The translations under genes and the position numbers were made by a program. The notes beneath the pieces are model-generated. The model did not search any database. It saw only the letters and a list, made by a program, of their open reading frames with translations, and was not told the DNA's origin. Positions 16,126 through 44,124 of a stretch of 64,000 bases of DNA are shown piece by piece (within the stretch, counting starts at the first letter, position 1; every line of letters begins with the position of its first letter). The stretch spans positions 24,180,001-24,244,000 of the forward strand of contig CM059431.1 in the NCBI GenBank assembly GCA_030390025.1, in the 5' to 3' direction. Origin of the DNA: Squalus acanthias (taxonomy: Eukaryota).

Positions 16126-17400
16126 TGCACAGTGTGTGACCCTTGTGAGTGTTGCCAGCTTATTCCACCATGGAGGGCATCATAGCCGAGACCAACCTTG
16201 TCCATATGTACACACTCTAACGATTCTAGTTCTATCATTCCCCAGATAAGAGGAACTGAGACCAATTGTAGCACCTTTTCATGTTTCTACTGAGGTCATG
16301 TTAACTCAGTGCAAGGGTGTGAATCTCTTAAATAAAGAGAGTGTCCTTCAGTAATTAATTCCGTCCCCCTGCCAAATGACTATAAAAGCTAATTATACAT
16401 GCAGCTTGAACAAATAAAGATATTTGTGAAAATATCTTAAAAACAGATGACACTCCAATACTCCAACTTGTGGGACAGGTTGGATGGACCAGAGTCTTTT
16501 CCTGTTGGTCAGTGTTCATATGTTCGTACTCCACAAGGATTGCAATTTTCTATGAAGGCTAGTTGGGATAAGTGTGGTTGTCTGCAGTCTGATCCCAATT
16601 CACAATCAGTGCATAGTGCACGGTCAGATAGAATAAATTCAAAATCATATCTGTCATTACACTTGACCTTTAGGTGACATGGATGAAGGTGGGACTACAG
16701 GGATGAAGTAATCCAACTAAATGCCCTCAGCAAAGATGAAAAACAATTTTAATTTCCTTTTTGAAAGATTAGCTACAATTTATGGATTATCACTTTTTTT
16801 AATGAAGGCGAGTATACTTTTCCAGCTACATCTTATACATGCATGCAAGGAATTAACATTCATAATTTGTATTTTTCTTAGGATTGGACTGTTCTGCTTG
16901 TTTGCTTCAAAATGTAATTTCTCTCTCCTCTACCTCTCCCATAAGAGAGACACTAGCCAGACCAACATGAACCTTCAAAGACTGTGAAATGTATTTCGCA
17001 CAAATCGACACTTTCATCATTGCAAAGGTCAGCGATTTCTCTGCAAAGGACACTAGACAGACACACATGCTCTGGCTTCAAACTCAAAAAGGCACTTTCA
17101 TCTTCCTTAAACATAACCTTTCCTTTGAATATAAAACCATCTTTATACGTGAAGGCTCACGGCTAGAGAATTAACCTGAATCTCTCCAGTACATAATTCT
17201 TGATTTGCAATTCCACATTTTAATGAAAATGCTCAAGGAGTCCTCCACAACAGTTCACACTGAAATTTTGTATATGCACAAGAAAACAGTGAATTTCAGA
17301 GAGAAAAACATAGAAACATAGAAGATAGGAGCAGGAGTAGGCCATTCGGCCCCTCGAGCCTGCTCCGCCATTTGATGAGATCATGGCTGATCATCTAAAC

Positions 17401-20262
17401 TCAGTACCCTGTACCTGCCTTCTCCCCATATCCCTTGATACCTTTAGCTTTAAGAAATATATCTAACTCATCCTTGAATATATTTAATGACTTCGCCTCA
17501 ACTACCTTCTGTGGTAGAGAATTCCACAGGTTCACCACTCTCTGGGTGAAGAAATTCTTCCTCATTTCTGTCCTAAATGCTTTACCCGTTATCCGTAGAT
17601 TATGACCCCTGGTTCTGGACTCTCCGACCATCGGGAACATTCTTCCTGCATCTAGTTTGTCCAGACCTGTCAGAATTTTATATGTTTCGATGAGATCCCC
17701 TCTCATTCTTCTATACTCCAGCAAGTATAAGCCCAATCGACCCAATCTCTCCTCATATGTCATTCCTGCCATCCCAGGTATCAGCCTTGTGAATCTTCGC
17801 TGAACTCCTTCCATGGCAAGAACATCCTTCCTCAGATAAGGCGACCAAAACTGCACACAGTACTCAAGGTGTGGTCTCACCAAGGCCCTGTACAACTGCA
17901 GCAGGACATCCCTGTTCCTATACTCAAACCCTTTCGCTATGAAGGCCAACATACCATTTGCCTTCTTCACCGCCTGCTGCACCTGCATGCTTACTTTCAG
18001 CGACTGGTGCACAAGGACACCCAGGTCTCGTTGCACTTCCCCTTCTCCCAATCTATTGCCATTCAGATAATAGTCTGCCTTTCTGTTTTTGACACCAAAG
18101 TGGATAACCTCGCATTTATCCACGTTATATTGCATCTGCCACGCTTCTGCCCACTCACCCAACCTGTCCAGATCATCCTGGAGTTTCTCGCTATCCTCCT
18201 CGCTGCACACACTCCCACCCAGCTTTGTGTCATCTGCAAACTTGGAGATATTACATTTAATTCCCTTATCTAGATCATTAATGTATATTGTGAATAGCTG
18301 GGGTCCAAGGACCGATCCCTGCGGTACCCCACTAGTCAATGCTTGCCACTCGGAAAAAGACCCATTAATTCCTACTCTCTGCTTTCTGTCCGCCAACCAG
18401 TTCTCTATCCAAGTCAATACCTTGCCCCCAATCCCATGTGCCTTAACTTTACCCGCTAATCTCTTATGCGGGACCTTATCGAAAGCCTTTTGAAAGTCCA
18501 AATACACCACATCTACTGGTTCTCCCTTATCTATTTTCCCAGTTACATCCTCAAAAAATTCCAGTAGATTAGTCAAGCACGATTTACCTTTTGTAAATCC
18601 ATGTTGACTTTGTCCGATCCTGTCACTGTTTTTCAAATGCTCAGCTATTACATCCTTTATAATGGACTCTAGCATTTTCCCCACTACCGATGTCAGGCTT
18701 ACCGGTCTGTAATTCCCCGCTTTCTCTCTACCACCCTTTTTGAATAGTGGGGTAACATTAGCTACCCTCCAATCCATGGGTACAGTTCCAGATTCCATCG
18801 AATGTTGGAAGATGATCAGCAATGCATCTACCATTTCTAGGGCCACTTCCTTAAGTACCCTAGGATGTAGATTATCAGGCCCTGGGGATTTATCGGCCTT
18901 CAATACCGTCAATTTCCCTAACACCATTTCCCTGCAAATACTGATTTCTTTCAGTTCCTCCCTTTCATCAGACCGTATGTTCTCCAACATCTCTGGGAGG
19001 TTATTTGTGTCCTCCTTTGTGAAGACAGAACCAAAATATGCATTTAATTGGGCTGCCATTTCTTTGTTCCCCATTATAACTTCCCCCGCTTCTGACTGCA
19101 AGGGACCTACACTTGATTTCACTAATCTTTTTCTCTTCACATATCTATAAAAGCTCTTACAGTCAGTTTTTATGTTCCCAGCAAGCTTACTTTCATATTC
19201 TATTTTCCCCTTCTTAATTAATCCCTTTGTCCTCCTTTGTTGAATCCTAAACTGCTCCCAATCCTCAGGGCTACTGCTTTTTCTGGCCAATTTATATGCC
19301 CTCTCCTTGGATCTGATGCTATCCCTAATTTCCCTTGTTAGCCACGGTTGAGTCACCCTTTTTGTTTTATTCTTATGCCACACTGGGATGTACAAATTCT
19401 GTAGTTCATCCATGCAGTCTTTGAATGTTTGCCATTGCCTATCCACCGTCAACCCCTTGAGTGACATTCCCCAATCAATCCTACCCAATTCGCGCCTCAT
19501 ACCATCGTAGTTTCCTTTATTTAAAATCAGGACCCTAGTCTCTGATTCAACTACTTCACTCTCCATCCTAATGAAGAATTCTATCATATTATGATCACTC
19601 TGACCAAAGGGGCCTCGTACAACAAGATTGCTAATTAATCCTTTCTCGTTGCATAATACCCAGTCTAAGATGGCCTGATCTCTGGTTGGTTCCTCGACAT
19701 ATTGTTCCAGAAAACCATCTCGTAAACATTCTAGGAATTCCTCCTCCACAGTATTTTTACTAATTTGGTTAGCCCAATCTATATGTAAATTAAAGTCACC
19801 CATGATGACTGCTGTGCCCTTACTGCATGCTTCTCTAATTTCCCTTTTAATGCCGTCCCCAACCTCCGTATTACTGTTTGGAGGTCTATATACCACTCCC
19901 ACTAACGTTTTCTGCCCCTTGTTATTTCTCAGTTCTACCCATACAGATTCCGCATCATCAGAGCTAATATCCTTCCTTTCAATTGTGTTAATCCCCTCTT
20001 TAACCAGCAATGCTACCCCACCTCCCTTTCTTTTTTGCCTATCTTTCCTAAATATTGAATAACCCTGGATGTTGAGTTCCCAGCCTTGGCCACCCTGGAG
20101 CCATGTTTCTGTAATCCCAATCAAATCGTATTCATTTACCTCTATTTGCGCAGCTAATTCATCCACCTTGTTCCGAATGCTCCTTGCATTAAGACACAAA
20201 GCCTTCAGGCTTGTTTTTTTAACGCTCTCAGACCTATATGAATTATTATTTACTGTGACCAT
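17401..20262 (-). CDS. CR1 ORF2: APE endonuclease + reverse transcriptase, 953 aa, uninterrupted
   Basis: CLNARSIRNK, GITETWL, YRPP, MGDFN, SDHN; KSPGPD, NYRPVSLTS, YLDFQKAFDKV, GVPQGSVLGP, FADDTK; C-terminal RTRGH...FFTQRVVNLWNSLP. Confidence 0.93.
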   Translation of the reverse strand: MVTVNNNSYRSESVKKTSLKALCLNARSIRNKVDELAAQIEVNEYDLIGITETWLQGGQGWELNIQGYSIFRKDRQKRKGGGVALLVKEGINTIERKDISSDDAESVWVELRNNKGQKTLVGVVYRPPNSNTEVGDGIKREIREACSKGTAVIMGDFNLHIDWANQISKNTVEEEFLECLRDGFLEQYVEEPTRDQAILDWVLCNEKGLISNLVVRGPFGQSDHNMIEFFIRMESEVVESETRVLILNKGNYDGMRRELGRIDWGMSLKGLTVDRQWQTFKDCMDELQNLYIPVWHKNKTKRVTQPWLTREIRDSIRSKERAYKLARKSSSPEDWEQFRIQQRRTKGLIKKGKIEYESKLAGNIKTDCKSFYRYVKRKRLVKSSVGPLQSEAGEVIMGNKEMAAQLNAYFGSVFTKEDTNNLPEMLENIRSDEREELKEISICREMVLGKLTVLKADKSPGPDNLHPRVLKEVALEMVDALLIIFQHSMESGTVPMDWRVANVTPLFKKGGREKAGNYRPVSLTSVVGKMLESIIKDVIAEHLKNSDRIGQSQHGFTKGKSCLTNLLEFFEDVTGKIDKGEPVDVVYLDFQKAFDKVPHKRLAGKVKAHGIGGKVLTWIENWLADRKQRVGINGSFSEWQALTSGVPQGSVLGPQLFTIYINDLDKGIKCNISKFADDTKLGGSVCSEEDSEKLQDDLDRLGEWAEAWQMQYNVDKCEVIHFGVKNRKADYYLNGNRLGEGEVQRDLGVLVHQSLKVSMQVQQAVKKANGMLAFIAKGFEYRNRDVLLQLYRALVRPHLEYCVQFWSPYLRKDVLAMEGVQRRFTRLIPGMAGMTYEERLGRLGLYLLEYRRMRGDLIETYKILTGLDKLDAGRMFPMVGESRTRGHNLRITGKAFRTEMRKNFFTQRVVNLWNSLPQKVVEAKSLNIFKDELDIFLKAKGIKGYGEKAGTGY

Positions 20263-24971: not shown

Positions 24972-25083
24972 CTCTGTGATCGGTCCCTCTCTTGGACCTC
25001 GGAGGATATTCAGTTCCTCTGCCTTTAGTTGAAACTTGGACAAGAAAGCATCTGCCACCTCGGCTCGGATTTCTAATCGTTGA
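24972..25083 (-). CDS. COG6: COG6 coding exon (exon 5 equivalent), 112 bp
   Basis: [37 protein letters not shown]; ttacag acceptor, gtaat donor. Confidence 0.95.
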
Positions 25084-33295: not shown

Positions 33296-33904
33296 AATGA
33301 TAGAAGCTGGAAATAACAGCATGAGAGAAAAGCGAGAATTGGATTTTTTTTTGCTTGCATATGGTATAGGCGGCACTTCATTGAAAGCCTTACATCCAGA
33401 TATAAATACTGAAATATTGGGATAATCCAAGGGGAGAGAAAAGGAGAGAGAAATTAATGATATAATAAAGAAAAAAAAATTGATCTGACCTGAAGATTAG
33501 TACAACACAAATATTGCCCCGTTACATGTTCCTGAATGTACACCAATTATTATAAGTACAATGAATACACCGATAATGCACACCAATAGGCCTACATGAT
33601 TTATAGTGAGCTACCTACTATGATTTAGGTATGTTTTCAAATCCAAAGAAAAGTTCTAGAATCGAGACAGAAATATTTTTATTTAAATTTTCCAACTATA
33701 TAAAATTTTCTAGGATTTAGCTCGTGAACCTTCTGCCATCCTGTTAGTGCAATATGAAAGCATCAGAGTGTAAACCTCCCAAATGCTACCCAGCAACATC
33801 TGCTGGAGGACAGGTGTGCACAGTTAATAAGGACAAGGCTGCTCTTAGCCAGATGGCCACCACCATCAAATCACTTCAGGTCAAACTTGGTGGTTATATG
33901 CATT

Positions 33905-34540
33905 CATAGCGAGAGGGTTTGAGTACAGGAACAAGGATGTCTTGCTGCAGTTGTACAGGGCCTTGGTGAGACCACACCTTGAGTACTGTGTGCAGTTTTG
34001 GTCGCCTTATCTGAGGAAGGATGTTCTTGCCATGGAAGGAGTTCAGCGAAGATTCACAAGGCTGATACCTGGGATGGCAGGAATGACGTATGAAGAGAGA
34101 TTGCGTCGATTGGGCTTATACTCGCTGGATTTTAGAAGAATGAGAGGGGATCGCATTGAAACTTATAAAATTCTGACAGGACAGGACAAACTAGATGCAG
34201 GAAGGATGTTCCCGATGATCGGGGAGTCCAGAACCAGGGGTCACAGTCTAAGGATAAGGGGTAAGCCATTTAGGACAGAAATGAGGAGGAATTTCTTCAC
34301 CCAGAGAGTGGTGAACCTGTGGAATTCTCTGCCACAGAAGGCAGTCGAGGCCAATTCATTAAATAGATTCAAGAAGGAGTTGGATATATTTCTTAAGGCT
34401 AAAGGGATCAAGGGATATGGGGAGAAAGCAGGGACAGGGTACTGAATTTGGATGATCAGCCATGATCGCATTGAATGGCGGAGCAGGCTAGAAGGGCCGA
34501 ATGGCCTACTCCTGCTCCTATCTTCTATGATTCTATGATT
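33905..34540 (+). mobile_element. CR1 3' fragment, same young subfamily as 17307-20778
   Basis: ORF 33942..34445 nearly identical to the last 167 aa of the 953-aa ORF2; same 3' UTR. Confidence 0.93.
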
Positions 34541-34796
34541 TCCCCTTATAGCAAAATGTAATTAAGGATGCTGCAAGTATCAACAGATTTCTTTTTATAA
34601 TTACTCATTCTCAGGATACGGGCATCAATGGCAAGGCCAGCATTCATTGCCCATCCCTCGAGAAGGTGGTAGTGGGCCGCCTTCTTGAAATGCTGCAATG
34701 AAGGTGCTGCCATAATGCTGTTAGGGATTACAAATTTATTTTCTGAGTTTATAACCATACACGAACCTGATAAAGTTAATGCCTATCTTGCAGCTG

Positions 34797-34992
34797 TGAG
34801 AAGTCGCACAACACCAGGTTATAGTCCAACAGCTTTATTTGAAATCACAAGCTTTCGAAGCGCTGCTCCTTCGTCAGGTGAAGCAGCGCTCCGAAAGCTT
34901 GTGATTTCAAATAAAGCTGTTGGACTATAACCTGGTGTTGTGCGACTTCTCACATTTGTCCACCCCAGTCCAACACCAGCATCTCCACATCA
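34797..34992. mobile_element. Penelope-like pLTR inverted-repeat insertion
   Basis: Arms 34795-34867 / 34882-34954 (1 mismatch) plus tail gtccaccccagtccaacacc...; TATCTTGCAGCTG duplicated at 34784-34796 and 34993-35005. Confidence 0.85.
34845..34881 (-). ncRNA. Minimal hammerhead ribozyme motif
   Basis: rc tcac-CTGACGA-a-ggagc(agc)gcttc-GAAA-gcTT-gtga. Confidence 0.7.
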
Positions 34993-35767: not shown

Positions 35768-36050
35768 TGCGGTATGGCAGTGTAGTGGTTATGTTACTGG
35801 ACTAGTAAATCAGATGCCTGGATTAATAATCCAGAGAGCGTGAGTTCAAATCTCACCATGGTAGTTTGTGAATGGAAATAAAAGCTGTTGGATGGTCATA
35901 AAAACCCAACTAGTTCACTAGTGCCCTTTACAGAACTTACCCAGTGTGACCTACGTGACTTAACAGCCTTCTGAAGTGGCCTCACAAACCACTCAGTTGT
36001 ATCAATCCGCACAAGGAAAACAGCAGGTCAAGAAGCAGGCCCATCAACAC
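35768..36050 (+). mobile_element. SINE B copy
   Basis: ggtatggcagtgtagtggttatgttactggactagtaa...gagttcaaatc head with A/B-box-like motifs. Confidence 0.75.
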
Positions 36051-37159
36051 CCTGTCAAGTTGTCTAAAAACATTATTTTCTGAAAAAAATCTAATTAATT
36101 AATTTGAATGAATCAACATAATCTCCTTCCACCGTCTCCATAGGGAGCCCATTCCATTGTGGTGTCCTCTGGTTTTACTGTTCTGGACAAGTTGAAACAG
36201 CTCGTCATGGTCTACATCATCTAGTCCCTATAAAGTCCTAAAAACAGTAATCATGTCACCTCAACCTACTCTTTTCAAGTGAGAACATGTCCAATTTACG
36301 TAATCGATAGTCATAATCTAATCCCTCCATCCCCTCAATCATTTTGGTTGACCTCTTCTGTATGCTTTCAATGGCTGCAATTTCCTTTTTGTACTGCAGT
36401 GATCAGAACTGCACACAGTATTCTAAATGCGGTCGCATTACTGATTTATAAAGTGGCAGAATTGCCTCACTCTTTTGGCTCAATATTGATCTTTTAATGC
36501 ATCCGAACATCTGATTTGCTTTACTCATTGCTCCGAGCATTGTTCCGATAGCTTCGATTTATTGCCAATCAGGGCCCCCCAGGTCTCTTTCATTTTCTAT
36601 ACACATTACTTTCTTTCCATTTTAGTAATAGTTCCTTCCTGGATTTTTTTCTCCCCATGTAAGCACTTTACATTTCTCAACATTGAATTTCATCTGCCAA
36701 CTGTTAGCCCAATTTCTCAAGTATATTCAAATTCTCCTGTGGCTTATCCTGTTCAGCTTTGCAGTCTTCCACCTTTATTAGCTTTGTATCACCTGCAAAT
36801 TCAGCCACTGTACTTGTGACTCCTCGTTCCAGATCATTTATGAAGATAATAAACAAAAGAGGTCCCCAAACAGACCCCTGTGGGACCCCACTGGCAACAT
36901 TCTCCCAGGCTGATGACAATCCCTGTATCACCACCCTCTGGGTTCTATCGGTCAACCAATTACGTATACATTGTGGAATATTTCCACTGATCCCCGTTTT
37001 ATTTTCAGTCCCAGCCTTTCCAGAGGAACTGTATCAAAGGCCTTAAGTGAAGTCCAAGTACACCACATCCACTGCCTTATCCCTATCAAGTTTCTTTGTC
37101 ACAACCACAAAGAAAACCAGTGGCAGATTGGCAAGAGCTCCCCTTCAAGAACCTATATT

Positions 37160-38752
37160 GGCCCAGATTTTGCGGTTAGCGGCGAAGGAACGGTGCTCGC
37201 CGTTCACCACGCTGACAGCTGCCCATAGAGTTTTCGCGGGCTTTTGAGCGGAGACTTGCTGTCATTGGGCATCTGATCCAGCGCTGCGCCTTCTACAGGG
37301 GATCTGTAGCGTGTTTGAGTAGGGCAAGTAACAGCGTGGCTCTTCAACCAATCAGATTGAAGAATCCTCACTGAGACATGCAGGGCTGGATTTTGAAGTT
37401 GGAGTCGGGAATCACACATTCTGGCTTGTGAACCCGCCTCCATCGAGATGTGGCCAACCCACTGTATTTTCCCTTGATTGACCTTGTTGAGCCCGCCCAG
37501 TGGGCTCAGCAGGCCAGTTAAGGGCCACCCGGCAACAGGTGACGTCACAGACTGACATTTCATCTATCAAGAGCTTTTGACAGATGAAATATCAGCGTTT
37601 GACAGCTCTGTGAAGCTGTCAAACACTCACAATATGATTTCTAACTTCAGTCCTTCCTTTCAGGCTGAGTTAGAAATCATTCCACCACAGAAATCAGAAG
37701 GCTGCTGTTTTTGACAGGTCCACGGCTTTCCTGCTTTCTGTGCCGGTGAGATTTCTAACTCCCGAGAACTGAAGGGCTGACACCTGCAGGAGGAAGTTAA
37801 GGTAAGTAAAACTTTTTCCAACACTTAGCACTTACCTTACACACTTACCTCTGCACACATGCACCCATCACTCACCTGCCCACCGGACATATCGACCCCT
37901 CCAACCCCTGCAGACCCACGGCCCGCCCCGATAACTTGGAGTGTTTGCCACCTGTTGGGAAGCGCACACTTTTCCTTTGAAAATAGGGATTATGCAAAAA
38001 ACTGCCTGTTAACTACCTGTTAACAGGCAGTTAATTGTCAGTAATCCCTTCCCGCCTCGGGGAGTCGGGTCTCAGCACAGGTCGGGTACCCGCCGCCAGA
38101 GAAACTGGCACGGAGGCGGGTTGGAGTTGGGATGGGGTCGGGACCCCCGAATCTGCAACTTTAACCCCACCCCCCACCCCGACTCCAAACCCGACTCCAC
38201 GGGTCATTCAAAATCCAGCCCGCAGAGTCTAAACCAGAAAGTATAAATTAGATTTAAATCATGTACAGAAAGTAAAATAAAGAGTGGGAAAGAAAGATGG
38301 GATTAAAAGAGAGAGAGAAGAGGCAGAAAGAAAAAGTAAAAAAAATAATTTTCATAAAAAAAAATCTACAACACTAATTAAATTCTGAAGGAATGAGACT
38401 CCACACTTGTAAAATTACATTTTCAGTGGCAGAGAGGTTGTTTAGCAGTAAGTATGATTTATCACACAGTTAAAAATTCACTTACACGTGAATGCACCAG
38501 CCCTAACATTTTCTACTGTGTTTAGTGGATAACTGGTGGGTAAGTACCGCAACTCCACGCCCTTACATTGATTTCAATGCCGAGTCTATCGGCGAGGTAC
38601 TGTTATAGCGCAGCCTGTGGGGGAGCAGGGTAACTTGGACAGCAACTTCTGGATTTCCACCTTTAACTGCACATGAATTGCTGTCTGATTTACTCCATAA
38701 TAACAGTGAGCGTTGATAGCCTCGCCGTTATTCTAAACGGCAAATCCTAGCC
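37160..38752. mobile_element. Non-autonomous Harbinger-type element (32689 family, opposite orientation) with nested insertion
   Basis: Begins ggcccagattttgcggttagcggcgaaggaacgg (rc of 33260-33295); ends ...ctcgccgttattc...caaatcctagcc; flanks ATT/TTT. Confidence 0.8.
37383..38221. mobile_element. Nested non-autonomous Harbinger-type element
   Basis: Perfect 15-bp TIR gggctggattttgaa / ttcaaaatccagccc, TSD GCA. Confidence 0.88.
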
Positions 38753-39153
38753 TTTTTATTTTATTTCTATCTAGATGCTCCATGATCTCATCTTTAATCA
38801 GGATTTCCATAATTTTACATGCAATGGATGTCAAACTCACTGGTCTGTCGATCCTTAGTCATTCTTGCTACCTTTTTTATGCGCATGTTGGGTAGAGGTT
38901 ATGATTGGGTTTGCCTACAATTGTCTCCATGGTTGAAAAGAATAGCTTGCCAATATACACTGCCAAGGTTCACATGCAAAGGATGGCTGTGTAAGTTATT
39001 AGTGGACTGATGGCACTTATGGAACCATCTCTCAGTTTTCAGAAGGGGAGCAAAAGGGAAATTATCGTAATCAGAAGGGAAAAGGAACCAATCGTGGTCA
39101 GGCAATGTGAAGCATATACAGCACACTTGTGTATACATGCCTTTATAATTTAA

Positions 39154-39327
39154 GAGGTCGCACAACACCAGGTTATAGTCCAACAGTTTTATTTGAAATC
39201 ACAAGCTTTCGGAACTATCGCTCCTTCCTCAGGTGATTTCAAATAAAACTGTTGGACTATAACCTGGTGTTGTGCGACCTCTCAATTTTGTCCACCCCAG
39301 TCCAACACCGGCATCTCCGCATCATGA
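39154..39327. mobile_element. Penelope-like pLTR inverted-repeat insertion
   Basis: Arms 39153-39202 / 39233-39282 perfect (50 bp) plus tail; TTTATAATTTAA duplicated at 39142-39153 and 39328-39339. Confidence 0.85.
39199..39236 (-). ncRNA. Hammerhead ribozyme motif closed by a long helix I
   Basis: rc ...tcac-CTGAGGA-a-ggagc(gata)gttcc-GAAA-gcTT-gtga... Confidence 0.75.
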
Positions 39328-39609
39328 TTTATAATTTAAAACATGAGTCGGATTTCCAGGCAAGAGGACCACAAAGACATTTGGCACAGACTTCAATGAA
39401 CTAGGAAACTGAGCATGCCAACAATGTAACTTTGATCAAGTCTGAATGATGACAGCAAATCACTCCATTTCAAGATGTGCTAAAGCAATCTACATAAATG
39501 AGAGATGTAAAGTACAAATGTAGACCAATTGTTACTTTTTTTCCTAATACTAGCTGATTTCCCATAGCGCTGCAAAAAACTGTCTTTAAAAATGATCTCC
39601 GACAACAAA

Positions 39610-41414
39610 TGTGAGGAGCTCATGGACTTCTTTCTCTAAGATTGAGACCGTCAATTCAGCTGCCTGTGCCACTTCCCTTCCTTCCCCTAGCCCACCAGGC
39701 CAAACTTCCTTTAAGGTCCCCCGCCCCCACCGCACTAGCCCTGAACTTGCTTCTTTCTCCAGTTTCTCTCCAATTTTCCCTCATGACCACTCCGCGCTCA
39801 TCTTGTCCAGGAGACCCACTTCCTGCTCCCTCGACCCTATTCCTACCAAACTGCTGACTACCCATCTTCCTTTTCTGGCTCCCATGTTAGCTGACATTGT
39901 TAACGGTTCTCTTTCCTCAGGTACTGTCCCACTCTCCCTCAAATCTGCCTTCATCACCCCTCTCCTCAAAAAAACAACCCTTGACCCCTCCATCCTTGCA
40001 AACTACTGTCCCATCTCCAACCTTCCTTTCCTCTCCAAAGTCCTCGAACGTGTTGTCGCCTCCCAAATCCGCGCCCATTTTTCCCGCAACTCCATGTTTG
40101 AATCCCTCCAATCAGGTTTCCGCCCCTGCCACAGTACCGAAACGGCATCAAAGTCACAAATGATATCCTTTGTGACTGTGACAAAGGTAAACTATTCCTC
40201 CTCGTCCTTCTTGACTTGTCTTCTGCCTTTGACACGGTTGACCATTCCATCCTCCTCCAACGCCTCTCCACCGTCGTCCAGCTGGGTGGGACTGCACTCG
40301 CCTGGTTCCATTCTTATCTATCTAATCGTAGCCAGAGAATCACCTGCAATGGCTTCTCTTCCAGCTCCCGCATCGTTACCTCTGGAGTCCCCCAAGGATC
40401 TATCCTTGGCCCCCTCCTATTTCTCATCTACATGCTGCCCCTTGGTGACATCATCCGAAAACACAGCGTCAGTTTCCACATGTACGCTGACCACACCCAG
40501 CTCTACTTCACCACCACTTCTCTCAACCCCACCACAGTCTCTAAATTGTCAGACTGCTTGTCCGACATCCAGTTCTGGATGAGCAGAAATTTTCTCCAAT
40601 TAAATATTGGGAAGACCGAAGCCATTGTTTTCGGTCCCCGCCACAAACTCCGTTCCCTAGCCACTAACTCCATCCCGCTCCCTAATATCTGTCTGAGGCT
40701 GAACCACACTGTTTGCAACCATATTTAACCCTGAAATGAGCTTCTGACCACATATCCGCAGCACAACGAAGACCGCCTTTTTCCACCTCCGTACCATTGC
40801 CCGTCTCCGCCCTTGCCTTAGGTCATCCACTGCTGAAACCCTCATCCATGCCTTTGTTACCTCTAGACTTAACTATTCCAACGCACTCCTGGCCAGCCTC
40901 CCACGTGCTACCCCACGTAAACTTGAGGTCATCCAAAATTCAGCTGCCGGTGTCTTAACTTGCACCAAATCCCATTCACCTATCACCCCTGTGCTCGCTG
41001 ACCTACATTGGCTCCCGGTTAAGCAACGTCTCAATTTCAAAATTCTCATCCTTGTTTTCAAATTGCCATTGCCTCGCCCCTCCCTATTGCTGTAATCTCC
41101 TTCAGCCCCACAACCACCCCCCCGAGATATCGGCGCTCCTCTGATTCTGCCCTCGAGTAACCCCTGATTATAATCGCTCAACCATTGGTGGCTGTGCCTT
41201 CTGTTGCCTAGGCAGCTCTGGAATTCCCTCCCTAAACCTCTCTTTCCCTCCTTTAAGATTTAAAACCAAGCTCTTTGACCACAGTTTTGGTCATCTGCCC
41301 TAATTTCTCCTTATGTGGCTCGGTGTCAATGTTTGTGTCTTATAATACTCCTGTGACGCGCCTTGGGACATTTTACTACGTTAAAGGTGCTATATAAATA
41401 CAAGTTGTTGTTGT
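39610..41414 (+). mobile_element. L2-clade LINE, 5'-truncated, frameshifted
   Basis: SCSLDPIPT, NYCPISNLPFLSKVLE, QSGFRPCHSTETA, SAFDTVDH, GVPQGSILGP, MYADHTQLY; tail gctatataaatacaag(ttg)n. Confidence 0.92.
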
Positions 41415-41477
41415 TTATCAGCCTCTACGTTTGTCTGGCAGGGTCTAATTTTAATGACTGTGTACATTTGTAACACT

Positions 41478-41664
41478 GGCCTTGAAATTATGCTGTGGAA
41501 TAATAGCGTACAAATGCTTAAAGTGTTTATCTGAAACTCCACTCTCTGCTACTTTAATGGAGGAATTAATCAATTTAAAATAATTAGGTTACGGGTCCAT
41601 TAAAGTAAGTGGATAAAGGAATTTCAGGCAAATGCGCTTATTATTTCAGTGTAACTTCAAGGTC
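41478..41664. mobile_element. Old fold-back MITE
   Basis: ggccttgaaattatgctg / cagtgtaacttcaaggtc termini, inner arms tactttaatgga / tccattaaagta, ACT on both flanks. Confidence 0.65.
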
Positions 41665-41843
41665 ACTATTTAAAACGGAGTTCATAAATCGTGTAAAGAT
41701 TGATAATGTAGGATAGGAAAAAAATGAAGTATTTAAAAATAGTAAAGAACATTAAGCATTATTCTGAATTAAAAGTTCTGATGCTGCTGTAGTCATTTGT
41801 AGGAATGAATAATCAGTTTGCTTTTTTTTTATTCGTTTACAAT

Positions 41844-42584
41844 GGCCCAAAAATTAGTGCCGCTACGCGGGAGTACGCACTGTGTACTCTCGCGTATTCT
41901 GTCTCCAATTGCCGGTTTTCTGCATGCACTGCGCATGCGCTGAAAACCGGCACTTGGTGAATTCAAAAGGGGGCGGTTCCTAGGTGAACCGCGTGCGCGC
42001 TACAGGCTGCGCGCACGCAGTGCACTTAGTGCTTTGGACGCGCAGGTAAGCATGGAAGATTTTAGACATAAAGAAAGGAGGTGTAAGACCCTCTTTTAAC
42101 AAGGTAAGTACTTAATTAAGTATTATTTTGAATTTTTTTTAACAGGTATATCTTTAGAGACTTTAAAGACAGGTAAGTTTATTTTTATAACTTTTTAAAA
42201 GATTTTAAATTTTTTCAAAAATTTAATTTTTTGTTTAAAATGGTTAATTTATTTAACTATACTTATTTTATTAATGTGATGGTTTTTCTTTAAAATTTAA
42301 TTGAGGTTTAGCTGTTCTTTTGGGGGGGTATAGCATTCATAGCTTTCACAGCCGTGCTGTGAAAGCTATGAATGAAAGATGGTGTGCTGCCATTGGCTCT
42401 AACTGAGTCACGTGATCCCACAGCTCGCACGAATTAACTACGCCTGTGGGATACGAAAGCACTGCACAGCTGCTGTCCAGAACATCAAGTTCGTGCGAGC
42501 TCGGACTGAAAAAGCCAGCGCGCAGTGAGAGATCGCGGGAAGGCCTTACCCTCGCATGAAGGCTCACTCACTAATTTTTGGGCC
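41844..42584. mobile_element. Non-autonomous Harbinger-type element with multi-hairpin interior
   Basis: 16-bp TIR ggcccaaaaattagtg / cactaatttttgggcc, TSD AAT; interrupts the LINE 3' end at 41822-41843 + 42585-42880. Confidence 0.88.
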
Positions 42585-42880
42585 AATATGTGGACAATGC
42601 TGCAAGGCCATATTTATTGCTCATTCTGAGTTTCTCTGAGAAGGTGGTGATGGCCCTTCTTCTTGAACCACTGCAGTCCTTGTGATGATGGTGCTCCCGT
42701 GATGGTGTTAGGGAGGGAATTCAAGATATGGACCCGATGGCAATTAAGAAATGCTGATATATGTCCAAGTCAGGATGGTGCGCGACTTTGGAGAGGAATG
42801 TGGAAGTGATGATCATCCCATGACATTGCCGCTCCAATCCTTCTCGGCAGTAGAGGTTGCAGGCTGGGAGGTGCAGTCGA
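42585..42880 (-). mobile_element. 3' end of divergent CR1-group LINE (family of 53045-55150)
   Basis: atttattgc..gagaaggtggtg..ttcttgaaccactgcagtcc..caagtcaggatggtg matches 53080-53340. Confidence 0.75.
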
Positions 42881-44124
42881 AGTTTGACTCAGATTGCGAT
42901 TTAAGCTCACTGTAAAACAGATTTTACTCGCTGCTTTTGGTTTTTAGGAGTATTTTTGAAAAATTGTTTTGATCTCTCTTTTAGCAGCGTGAGGGCCAGT
43001 GCTGAATTTTGAAGAGCAACCTCCAGAGAGAGCAGTAAATGAGTTAGATGCAGGAAGTTTCAGCTCCCCGGAGTGTAGAGAGGCAGCCTGGGCCATATTA
43101 GTTGTAGAGATAGTTGAAAAGGAGACGTGAGACTTGCTGAGGCCGTCCCAGGAGCCAGCTCACTGAAAATTTAAGATTGGCAGTGGTACTGCTGTTGGAC
43201 CTATGTGCACCATAAACACAATGAATTCAAAGCTCTGATTATTTTGTGTGAAAAGTGTAACTTCTTTTAGGAATGATGTGGCTGCAGAACAGCAATGGGG
43301 AACCTGGCTTATTTTTAGGTGTACATGATAGAGTAGCTGAATGTGTCATGGTGACTATATCTCAGATATGTGTTTAAATGTGTTCTTTTTGTCTAATGTG
43401 AGCAGTCAGAATAGGCTTTATGCAATAAGATTGGGGAGATAACAAAAGCAGAAAATAACCAATTAAAAAGGAGAAAAAAACAGGCAGACGTGATAGTCGC
43501 TAGTCGCAAAAAAAATTATATAGCAGATTTGGAGGCTGTAACTGTACAAGGCTCATTTACTTAAATTTTGTTTTACAGTATCGAATCCATATACATGATA
43601 TACAAGTCCCACATAAATAGGTTCATTCTCAAATCTGTAGATGCTAATCCATTCATTGTATAGTTAAACACTTTATTATTTACCAACTACAACATGCATT
43701 TTGTATCTTGTGTAAACACATAAATTATCAGATTTATTGAATTCAAGATTAAAACCTGCCACAATGGGATTTGAACTCCCTGTCCTCTGGGTTGCTAGTT
43801 CAGTACCATAACTACTAGGCGACTGTACCCTACTACCTACTCTCTACCTCCCCTGGAAGCATTGACTCATAATGAGGTGCAGTTCAATGGACACTGACAA
43901 GCCTCCAGTATTTCCTCCAATTGGCCACCTTTCATGTGAGCCTCGACAGTGAGTGTCAGTACGTTATTCAACAGTGAATATAGTGATCAGAAGTTGGAAC
44001 CTTAGCTGATATTTCTGGATCCCTGGGTCGAGTGAGGCCAAGTGTAGCATCTGACAAAGGGTTATACCTGAACTTTAACCTGTCTTTTCTCTTTACAGAT
44101 GCAGAGCTTTGGCTCCTGATTAAG

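Follow-up and report, generated by a model that had tools for sequence, protein, structure and literature searches.

Ends of Penelope-like insertions in the Squalus acanthias genome mark a likely capped RNA start and, less often, a predicted hammerhead cut

We lean towards reading the insertions of a Penelope-like element (PLE) family in Squalus acanthias as a fossil map of RNA 5' ends, with a large peak at a capped start and a lesser but sharp one where the scissile bond of the element's hammerhead lies. Germline cutting would remove the cap and the first 37 nt of the RNA, cut and uncut RNAs would be copied by a two-template complex, and the cDNAs would be joined via helix I. The analysis concerns a 64,000-nt window (contig CM059431.1 of GCA_030390025.1, positions 24,180,001 to 24,244,000) with one such insertion in an intron of COG6. 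Taken alone, that locus is an unremarkable example of an insertion type already described; the valuable part is the family-level end map, whose sequence-based evidence that a PLE hammerhead cuts in vivo is moderate and indirect. A capped start and two-template priming both have a stronger signal than cleavage does.

The COG6 insertion extends from 39153 to 39327, between 12-bp target duplications (Table 1), and is larger than the stretch first described. An earlier note on this DNA claimed a perfect 50-bp inverted repeat, and 39153-39202 is the exact reverse complement of 39233-39282. Its further claims, that the plus-strand pLTR copy begins directly after the predicted cut and that the stem encloses a 30-nt minimal core, are borne out by the sequence: the first base of the copy is 39233, and the minus strand from 39232 to 39203 reads CUGAGGA-A-GGAGC(GAUA)GUUCC-GAAA-GC-UU inside the 50-bp stem. 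By the geometry of the full-length copy L218, the short arm stops 3-6 nt before the likely transcription start site (TSS). That the core lies within a COG6 intron, in sense orientation, also holds, as minus-strand COG6 exons were found on either side of the insertion. The Pfam models COG6_N/C are matched by six of seven exon-frame peptides (E<=0.0024), four of these six scoring above the curated cut-off. The nearest exons lie at window 24972-25083 and at about 83,700 (L211:9682-9774), which places the insertion within an intron of about 58 kb and the hammerhead core on the pre-mRNA strand. Two further head-to-head copies occupy the same intron, with the GAAAGCUU half of the core paired in predicted folds. 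The window has other repeats: a LINE reverse-transcriptase-like fragment was seen by eye in long open frames beside the insertion (window 39596-40728, plus strand), and window 17300-17946 and 33900-34546 form an inverted pair of 647 nt with 92% identity; separated by 16 kb, they are probably both copies of some other repeat.

Table 1. Features of the COG6-intron insertion and of related sequences in the window.
Feature	Positions	Strand	Basis or remark
Left target-site duplication, 12 bp	39142..39153		identical to 39328-39339; final base common to the arm
Short arm, pLTR copy: helix I 5' strand, hammerhead, to likely proximal RT start site	39153..39236	-	geometry as in full-length copy L218
Minimal type I hammerhead core, predicted cut between 39203 and 39202	39203..39232	-	sequence; covariation in 241 family cores
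Junction microhomology GTGA, 4 nt, equal to native helix I	39233..39236		UCAC/GUGA in 221-231 of 241 cores per pair
Long arm, pLTR copy from the base after the predicted cut to just past the element ATG (39324-39326)	39233..39327	+	sequence; comparison with full-length copy
PLE 'tail', about 45 nt, on one arm only	39283..39327	+	sequence; two RT start sites (PMC11167929, available text)
Right target-site duplication	39328..39339		identical to 39142-39153
Second head-to-head copy, same family, 90-bp arms, 14-nt loop	31311..31548		both cores buried in duplex (predicted fold)
Third head-to-head copy, from a different subfamily, with 73-bp arms meeting in helix II	34793..34992		GAAAGCUU buried (predicted fold)
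COG6 exon downstream of the host intron	24972..25083	-	Pfam COG6 matches

The Penelope-like origin proposed in the earlier note is supported by an autonomous parent with an 892-aa RT ORF and pLTR direct repeats, together with the inverted truncated copy, the one-sided tail and the target-site duplication (TSD). Reached by following the tail sequence, this ORF is intact in L218 and L219 and matches RVT_1 in Pfam (E=1.4e-8); its ATG comes after the same tail sequence as in the COG6 insertion. The direct repeats flank the ORF, giving two same-strand hammerhead sites, one per side, in L217 and L219. A GIY-YIG/CCHH-like motif was recognized by eye in the C-terminus, where Pfam gave no match at E<=0.1. 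The Neptune/Nematis clade is defined by an extra CX2-5CxxC linker between RT and EN (PMC8557442, available text), and the ORF carries a C-x4-C-x2-C linker before EN in agreement with that definition. Judged by its sequence, the element is probably an endonuclease-bearing PLE, and it carries the Neptune/Nematis linker. Exact genome matches number 6,972 for a 46-nt tail pattern and 63,828 for a 24-place pattern across the cut site, and the family comprises about 64,000 arms genome-wide. Many of its insertions share a small number of AT-rich landing spots inside other repeats such as CR1-like ORFs (e.g., L002, L003, L004, L012, L195), with near-identical flanks in, for example, L087-L089 and L097, which suggests a target preference.

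The assignment of the core to the minimal type I hammerheads stands, with a conserved core, helices I and II, a palindromic helix III, and covariation in 241 family cores, which come from fetched loci, junction-selected sets included. In the COG6 copy the features are CUGAGGA, an extra A, a 5-bp helix II, GAAA, the palindromic AGCU and a U at H17. Across the 241 cores the 4-bp helix I and 5-bp helix II are kept while N7, H17 (U/C) and loop II vary, and compensatory changes from C-G to U-A occur in helix I in 7 cores and in helix II in 16. An Rfam scan of 36000-43000 gave no hammerhead match at E<=5 and only miRNA-like hairpin matches below threshold. Native helix I, UCAC/GUGA, is kept in 221-231 of the 241 cores per pair, so the homology at the COG6 joint is native helix I itself; a caveat in the earlier note had named CAC/GTG microhomology at this point, correctly as to its presence but not its size, which is 4 nt (GTGA) and takes in all of the helix. 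CCGACGA replaces CUGANGA in 15 of the 241 cores (L037, L045, L046, L050, L054), and those subfamilies are still spreading; the single CCGA core among 82 window-type junctions is too few, and without a denominator, for comparison with the CUGA-core subfamilies.

The hairpin as a whole folds at -102.1 kcal/mol (z -19), a value that none of 200 shuffles equalled. As a monomer it cannot close helix III, since A15.1-U16.1 would leave a 2-nt loop. Computed at the level of secondary structure only, the active dimer lies 2.5 kcal/mol above two monomers, whether helix I has 4 or 50 bp. The suggestion that the long helix I improves the ribozyme within the host intron finds no support here: the active form is a double hammerhead whose helix I has to pair from one molecule to the other, and the computed cost of that dimer is not lowered by the longer helix. 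A co-transcriptionally folded 50-bp helix would swap only slowly into the dimer, and on these models the likely effect of the stem in COG6 pre-mRNA would be to hold the monomer in an inactive state, not to better the ribozyme. Domesticated intronic hammerheads of the HH9/HH10 type have a stable helix III that permits monomer cleavage, and they show orthologous conservation. We rejected such a domesticated hammerhead here on helix III, in which A15.1-U16.1 closes a 2-nt loop. In vitro, single minimal hammerhead motifs did not cleave (PMC4209133, available text). By the fold model the intronic hammerhead copy is likely inert, and the COG6-intron copy is likely neutral.

Genome-wide, arms stop mainly at the A of ACTTCACC, 37 nt upstream of the cut, where 3,696 arms end with C or T as the next letter, roughly ten times the count at the cut site. 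Scored by eye, the next letter is C (sense G) in 81 of the first 100 start-site rows, and C still leads by 50 to 19 after dropping 31 rows in which one-base homology could supply it; at two loci the extra G is present on both arms. Copying an RNA cap leaves an extra G. Because arms end at the A of ACTTCACC with just such a G, this position appears to be the capped start of the RNA, a likely assignment from the sequence. The likely core promoter of the element lies at about 5000-5165 of L218, where TATATATG (TATA) sits 32 nt ahead of the A. A junction-blind sample, made up of the first 90 among 100 tail-pattern matches listed (6,972 in total), has 16 of its 90 long arms beginning within -2 to +3 of the A and four within 3 nt of the cut, with the remainder spread out. 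With the start-site peak as positive control, arm ends can be read as a record of RNA 5' ends. The hammerhead would likely occupy nt 1-41 of the RNA, and the predicted cut, 91 nt before the ATG, would remove the cap. Contigs from four sequencing runs of presumed type contained no start or end sites and bear on expression in neither direction.

The earlier note had proposed a tally of this family's inversion breakpoints relative to the cut. The breakpoints are non-random, with a peak one base wide at the predicted cut, but the dominant breakpoint is the likely TSS. Counted over the whole genome at three positions, as a 22-nt anchor whose next two letters are off-reference, ends number 384 at the cut site (+1), 109 at +8, a control raised by a deletion variant, and 81 at -2, a control whose filter leaves out one homology class; the counts include duplicated loci, and the patterns match some of the subfamilies. 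The excess at +1 is 3.5-fold over the +8 control and 4.7-fold over the -2 control, beside 63,828 read-through arms. Restricting the count to ends followed by TG, which leaves out the helix-I class and the CAC|TTCACC class, gives scaled values of about 73 at +1, about 25 at +8 and 14 at -2 (from 19 of the first 100 rows, 23 of 100, and 14 of 81, respectively).

Row tallies made by eye from the first listed contigs resolve the surroundings of the peak. Downstream, 100 rows (8 noise rows dropped) give 32 ends at +1 and 9, 4, 11, 10, 10, 9, 3 and 4 at +2 to +9, a 3.1-fold peak after filter correction and 2.1-fold without the homology classes. Upstream, 100 rows (2 noise rows dropped) give 24 at +1 and 14, 8, 10, 4, 6, 15 and 17 at -1 to -7, the excess at -1 fitting chance extension of +1 ends. 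A script reproduced the by-eye +1 counts on 30+30 rows (10 and 7). T follows the +1 ends in 23 of 32 rows; T is also common after other positions, and special end chemistry was set aside as the source of its excess. In a set of 32 rows, five are plain, non-inverted insertions whose TSD abuts +1 or lies no more than 2 nt from it (L122, L141, L264, L262, L269); as these lack helix-I homology, such homology is not required for +1 ends. Once the filters are allowed for, ends at +1 would amount to about a tenth of start-site ends, the anchors of the two counts being different. Going by these sequence counts, the +1 peak probably reflects ribozyme cleavage.

The exact COG6-type junction recurs in 82 copies genome-wide, in several subfamilies. 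Among the first 30 of these, the tail lies on the +1 arm in 16 (two being duplicates of one locus), on the core arm in 13 and on neither in one, and at least seven core variants are present. Several core variants and both tail geometries imply that the junction formed repeatedly, without descent from one master. It was found in none of the 90 junction-blind copies, which were picked by tail alone; loci fetched with the junction in the query were left out of frequency estimates. A MITE-like non-autonomous family, in which all copies inherit one junction, was ruled out: junctions vary widely, and the COG6-type one spans subfamilies and geometries. A non-LTR retrozyme, which consists of tandem units with a hammerhead in each (bioRxiv 10.64898/2026.07.22.740005, available text), was ruled out by the single head-to-head insertion. 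In another group of hairpins (e.g., G000:C2:126055520, C2:94284019, C1:260461725, C2:31492027), both arms end at or beside the predicted cut and the core is gone.

For the COG6 copy in particular, two cDNAs of uncut RNA could have been trimmed and joined at TCAC/GTGA through microhomology, with no cleavage at all. The 4-nt homology at the joint belongs to a self-complementary helix only 3-6 nt from the main run-off point, and the other arm of this copy ends near the dominant stop. Homology junction classes that need no cut make up 8 and 5 of 100 rows, roughly 60-95 copies when scaled, against 82 strict window-type junctions; because these classes are of similar size, microhomology alone is about as likely as a cut RNA for this copy. 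It would leave unexplained the +1 excess in the TG class and in the host-joined TSD copies, and we give it somewhat less than an even chance. Given the 82-fold recurrence and the 4-nt microhomology, a single copy cannot be shown to derive from cut RNA, and we put the origin of the COG6 copy from such an RNA at only slightly below an even chance.

The +1 peak itself might instead arise from RT pausing or from a protein nuclease that cuts at a structured spot, such as just before the dimer helix III. Arm ends show a second, smaller rise at -7 beside the foot of helix II (17 of 100 rows, in part a filter advantage), which is possibly enzyme pausing and warns that structure-linked stops can also yield peaks; +1 may relate to the dimer helix III as -7 relates to helix II. 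Yet the monomer fold predicts a stop at +5, the foot of helix I, and no peak is found there (11 ends at +4 and 10 at +5, partly homology-driven), and the peak at the scissile bond is only one base wide. Pausing or nuclease cutting is thus an unlikely source of the +1 ends, and ribozyme cleavage is the reading that we prefer.

The two arms of an insertion differ in 15 of 49 head-to-head pairs, and in seven of the 49 both arms bear the marks of different recurrent variants, with hammerheads of different subfamilies in one insertion (L067, L225, L228, L234, L238, L243, L244). This points to two RNAs copied into one site. Such mixed arms argue for inverted pLTRs made from two sense templates and not by self-priming on antisense RNA. 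The idea of self-priming in PLEs was put forward earlier (PMC3846280, available text); here a single cDNA would have snapped back through helix I and copied itself, which suits the 100% complementarity of the arms in the COG6 insertion and could apply to those copies, 13 of 30, whose tail is on the core arm. The +1 arm of the COG6 copy, however, has a tail that the core arm is without, so it was not copied from the core arm, and the mixed pairs also speak against self-priming, which we consider very unlikely. In vitro work with a PLE protein showed nicking and extension of both strands, with two internal start sites that account for the tail (PMC11167929, available text). The COG6 insertion is very probably twin-primed. 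That a MITE-like hairpin master spread the junction by descent, or that the host selected a stabilized intronic ribozyme, is highly improbable even with 82 copies sharing the junction and L002 matching over 173 nt at 100%, as the shared junction spans at least seven core variants and both tail geometries, each copy has its own TSD and arm end, and the active dimer gains no energy from the 50-bp helix.

The account that we favor, with reasonable though far from full confidence, is a twin-primed head-to-head insertion in which one cDNA came from ribozyme-cut RNA and was joined through helix I. Two reverse-transcription events would be primed on both strands of one staggered cut. One cDNA would halt at +1, running off at a hammerhead-made RNA end with TCAC at its own 3' end, while the other, from uncut RNA, would reach or near the start site, and the two would anneal at GTGA, the four helix-I bases. 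A minority of templates, those behind the order of 1% of arms, would be ribozyme-cut, and the 50-bp stem would be a by-product of insertion. Insertion in vitro did not need the hammerhead, and in the anole no RNA-seq reads were seen where the cut would fall (PMC11167929, available text).

The function of PLE hammerheads has been called unclear (PMC8557442, available text). A one-base excess of ends at the scissile bond, beside a cap-marked start-site control, would be in vivo evidence that weak PLE ribozymes cut, and the size of the excess would give a rough measure of that cutting. On the strength of the sequences, the ribozyme likely sometimes cuts RNA that gets copied. In titles and the beginnings of abstracts, subscription papers and Repbase reports falling outside this coverage, we found no report of PLE insertion ends mapped to the hammerhead cut, and the available text of PMC8557442 and PMC3846280 does not count ends relative to the cut.

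Much of the architecture has been described before in the available portions of the literature: inverted truncated pLTRs, tails, TSDs and TATA/initiator motifs (PMC8557442, PMC3846280), and minimal hammerheads (PMC4209133). Like the EN+ PLEs of the first two sources, the COG6 family has head-to-head pLTR copies, a one-sided tail, a TSD, TATA plus initiator in the pLTR, and a parent with RT plus a putative GIY-YIG at its C-terminus; the COG6 insertion differs from those described there in being without an ORF part and in having its joint on helix I at the predicted cut. The metazoan PLE minimal type I hammerheads (PMC4209133, available text) share the core, the extra base before helix II, G10.1-C11.1, the 4-bp helix I and the small palindromic helix III, whereas the COG6 copy has a 50-bp intramolecular stem in place of native helix I. 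The Poseidon element PAc of the anole (PMC11167929, available text) likewise has two RT start sites that give the tail, both strands nicked and extended, and AT-rich targets; its cut falls within the ORF, 26 nt in, and RNA-seq showed no cut ends, while the Squalus element has its cut 91 nt ahead of the ATG, with an enrichment of genomic ends at it. The HDV-like 5' ribozyme of R2 (PMC3774820, available text) offers a parallel, as its cut position shows up in genomic 5' junctions that form through microhomology. In R2, however, the cut defines the normal 5' end, whereas the Squalus cut gives only a minor one, with about a tenth of the ends at the likely TSS.
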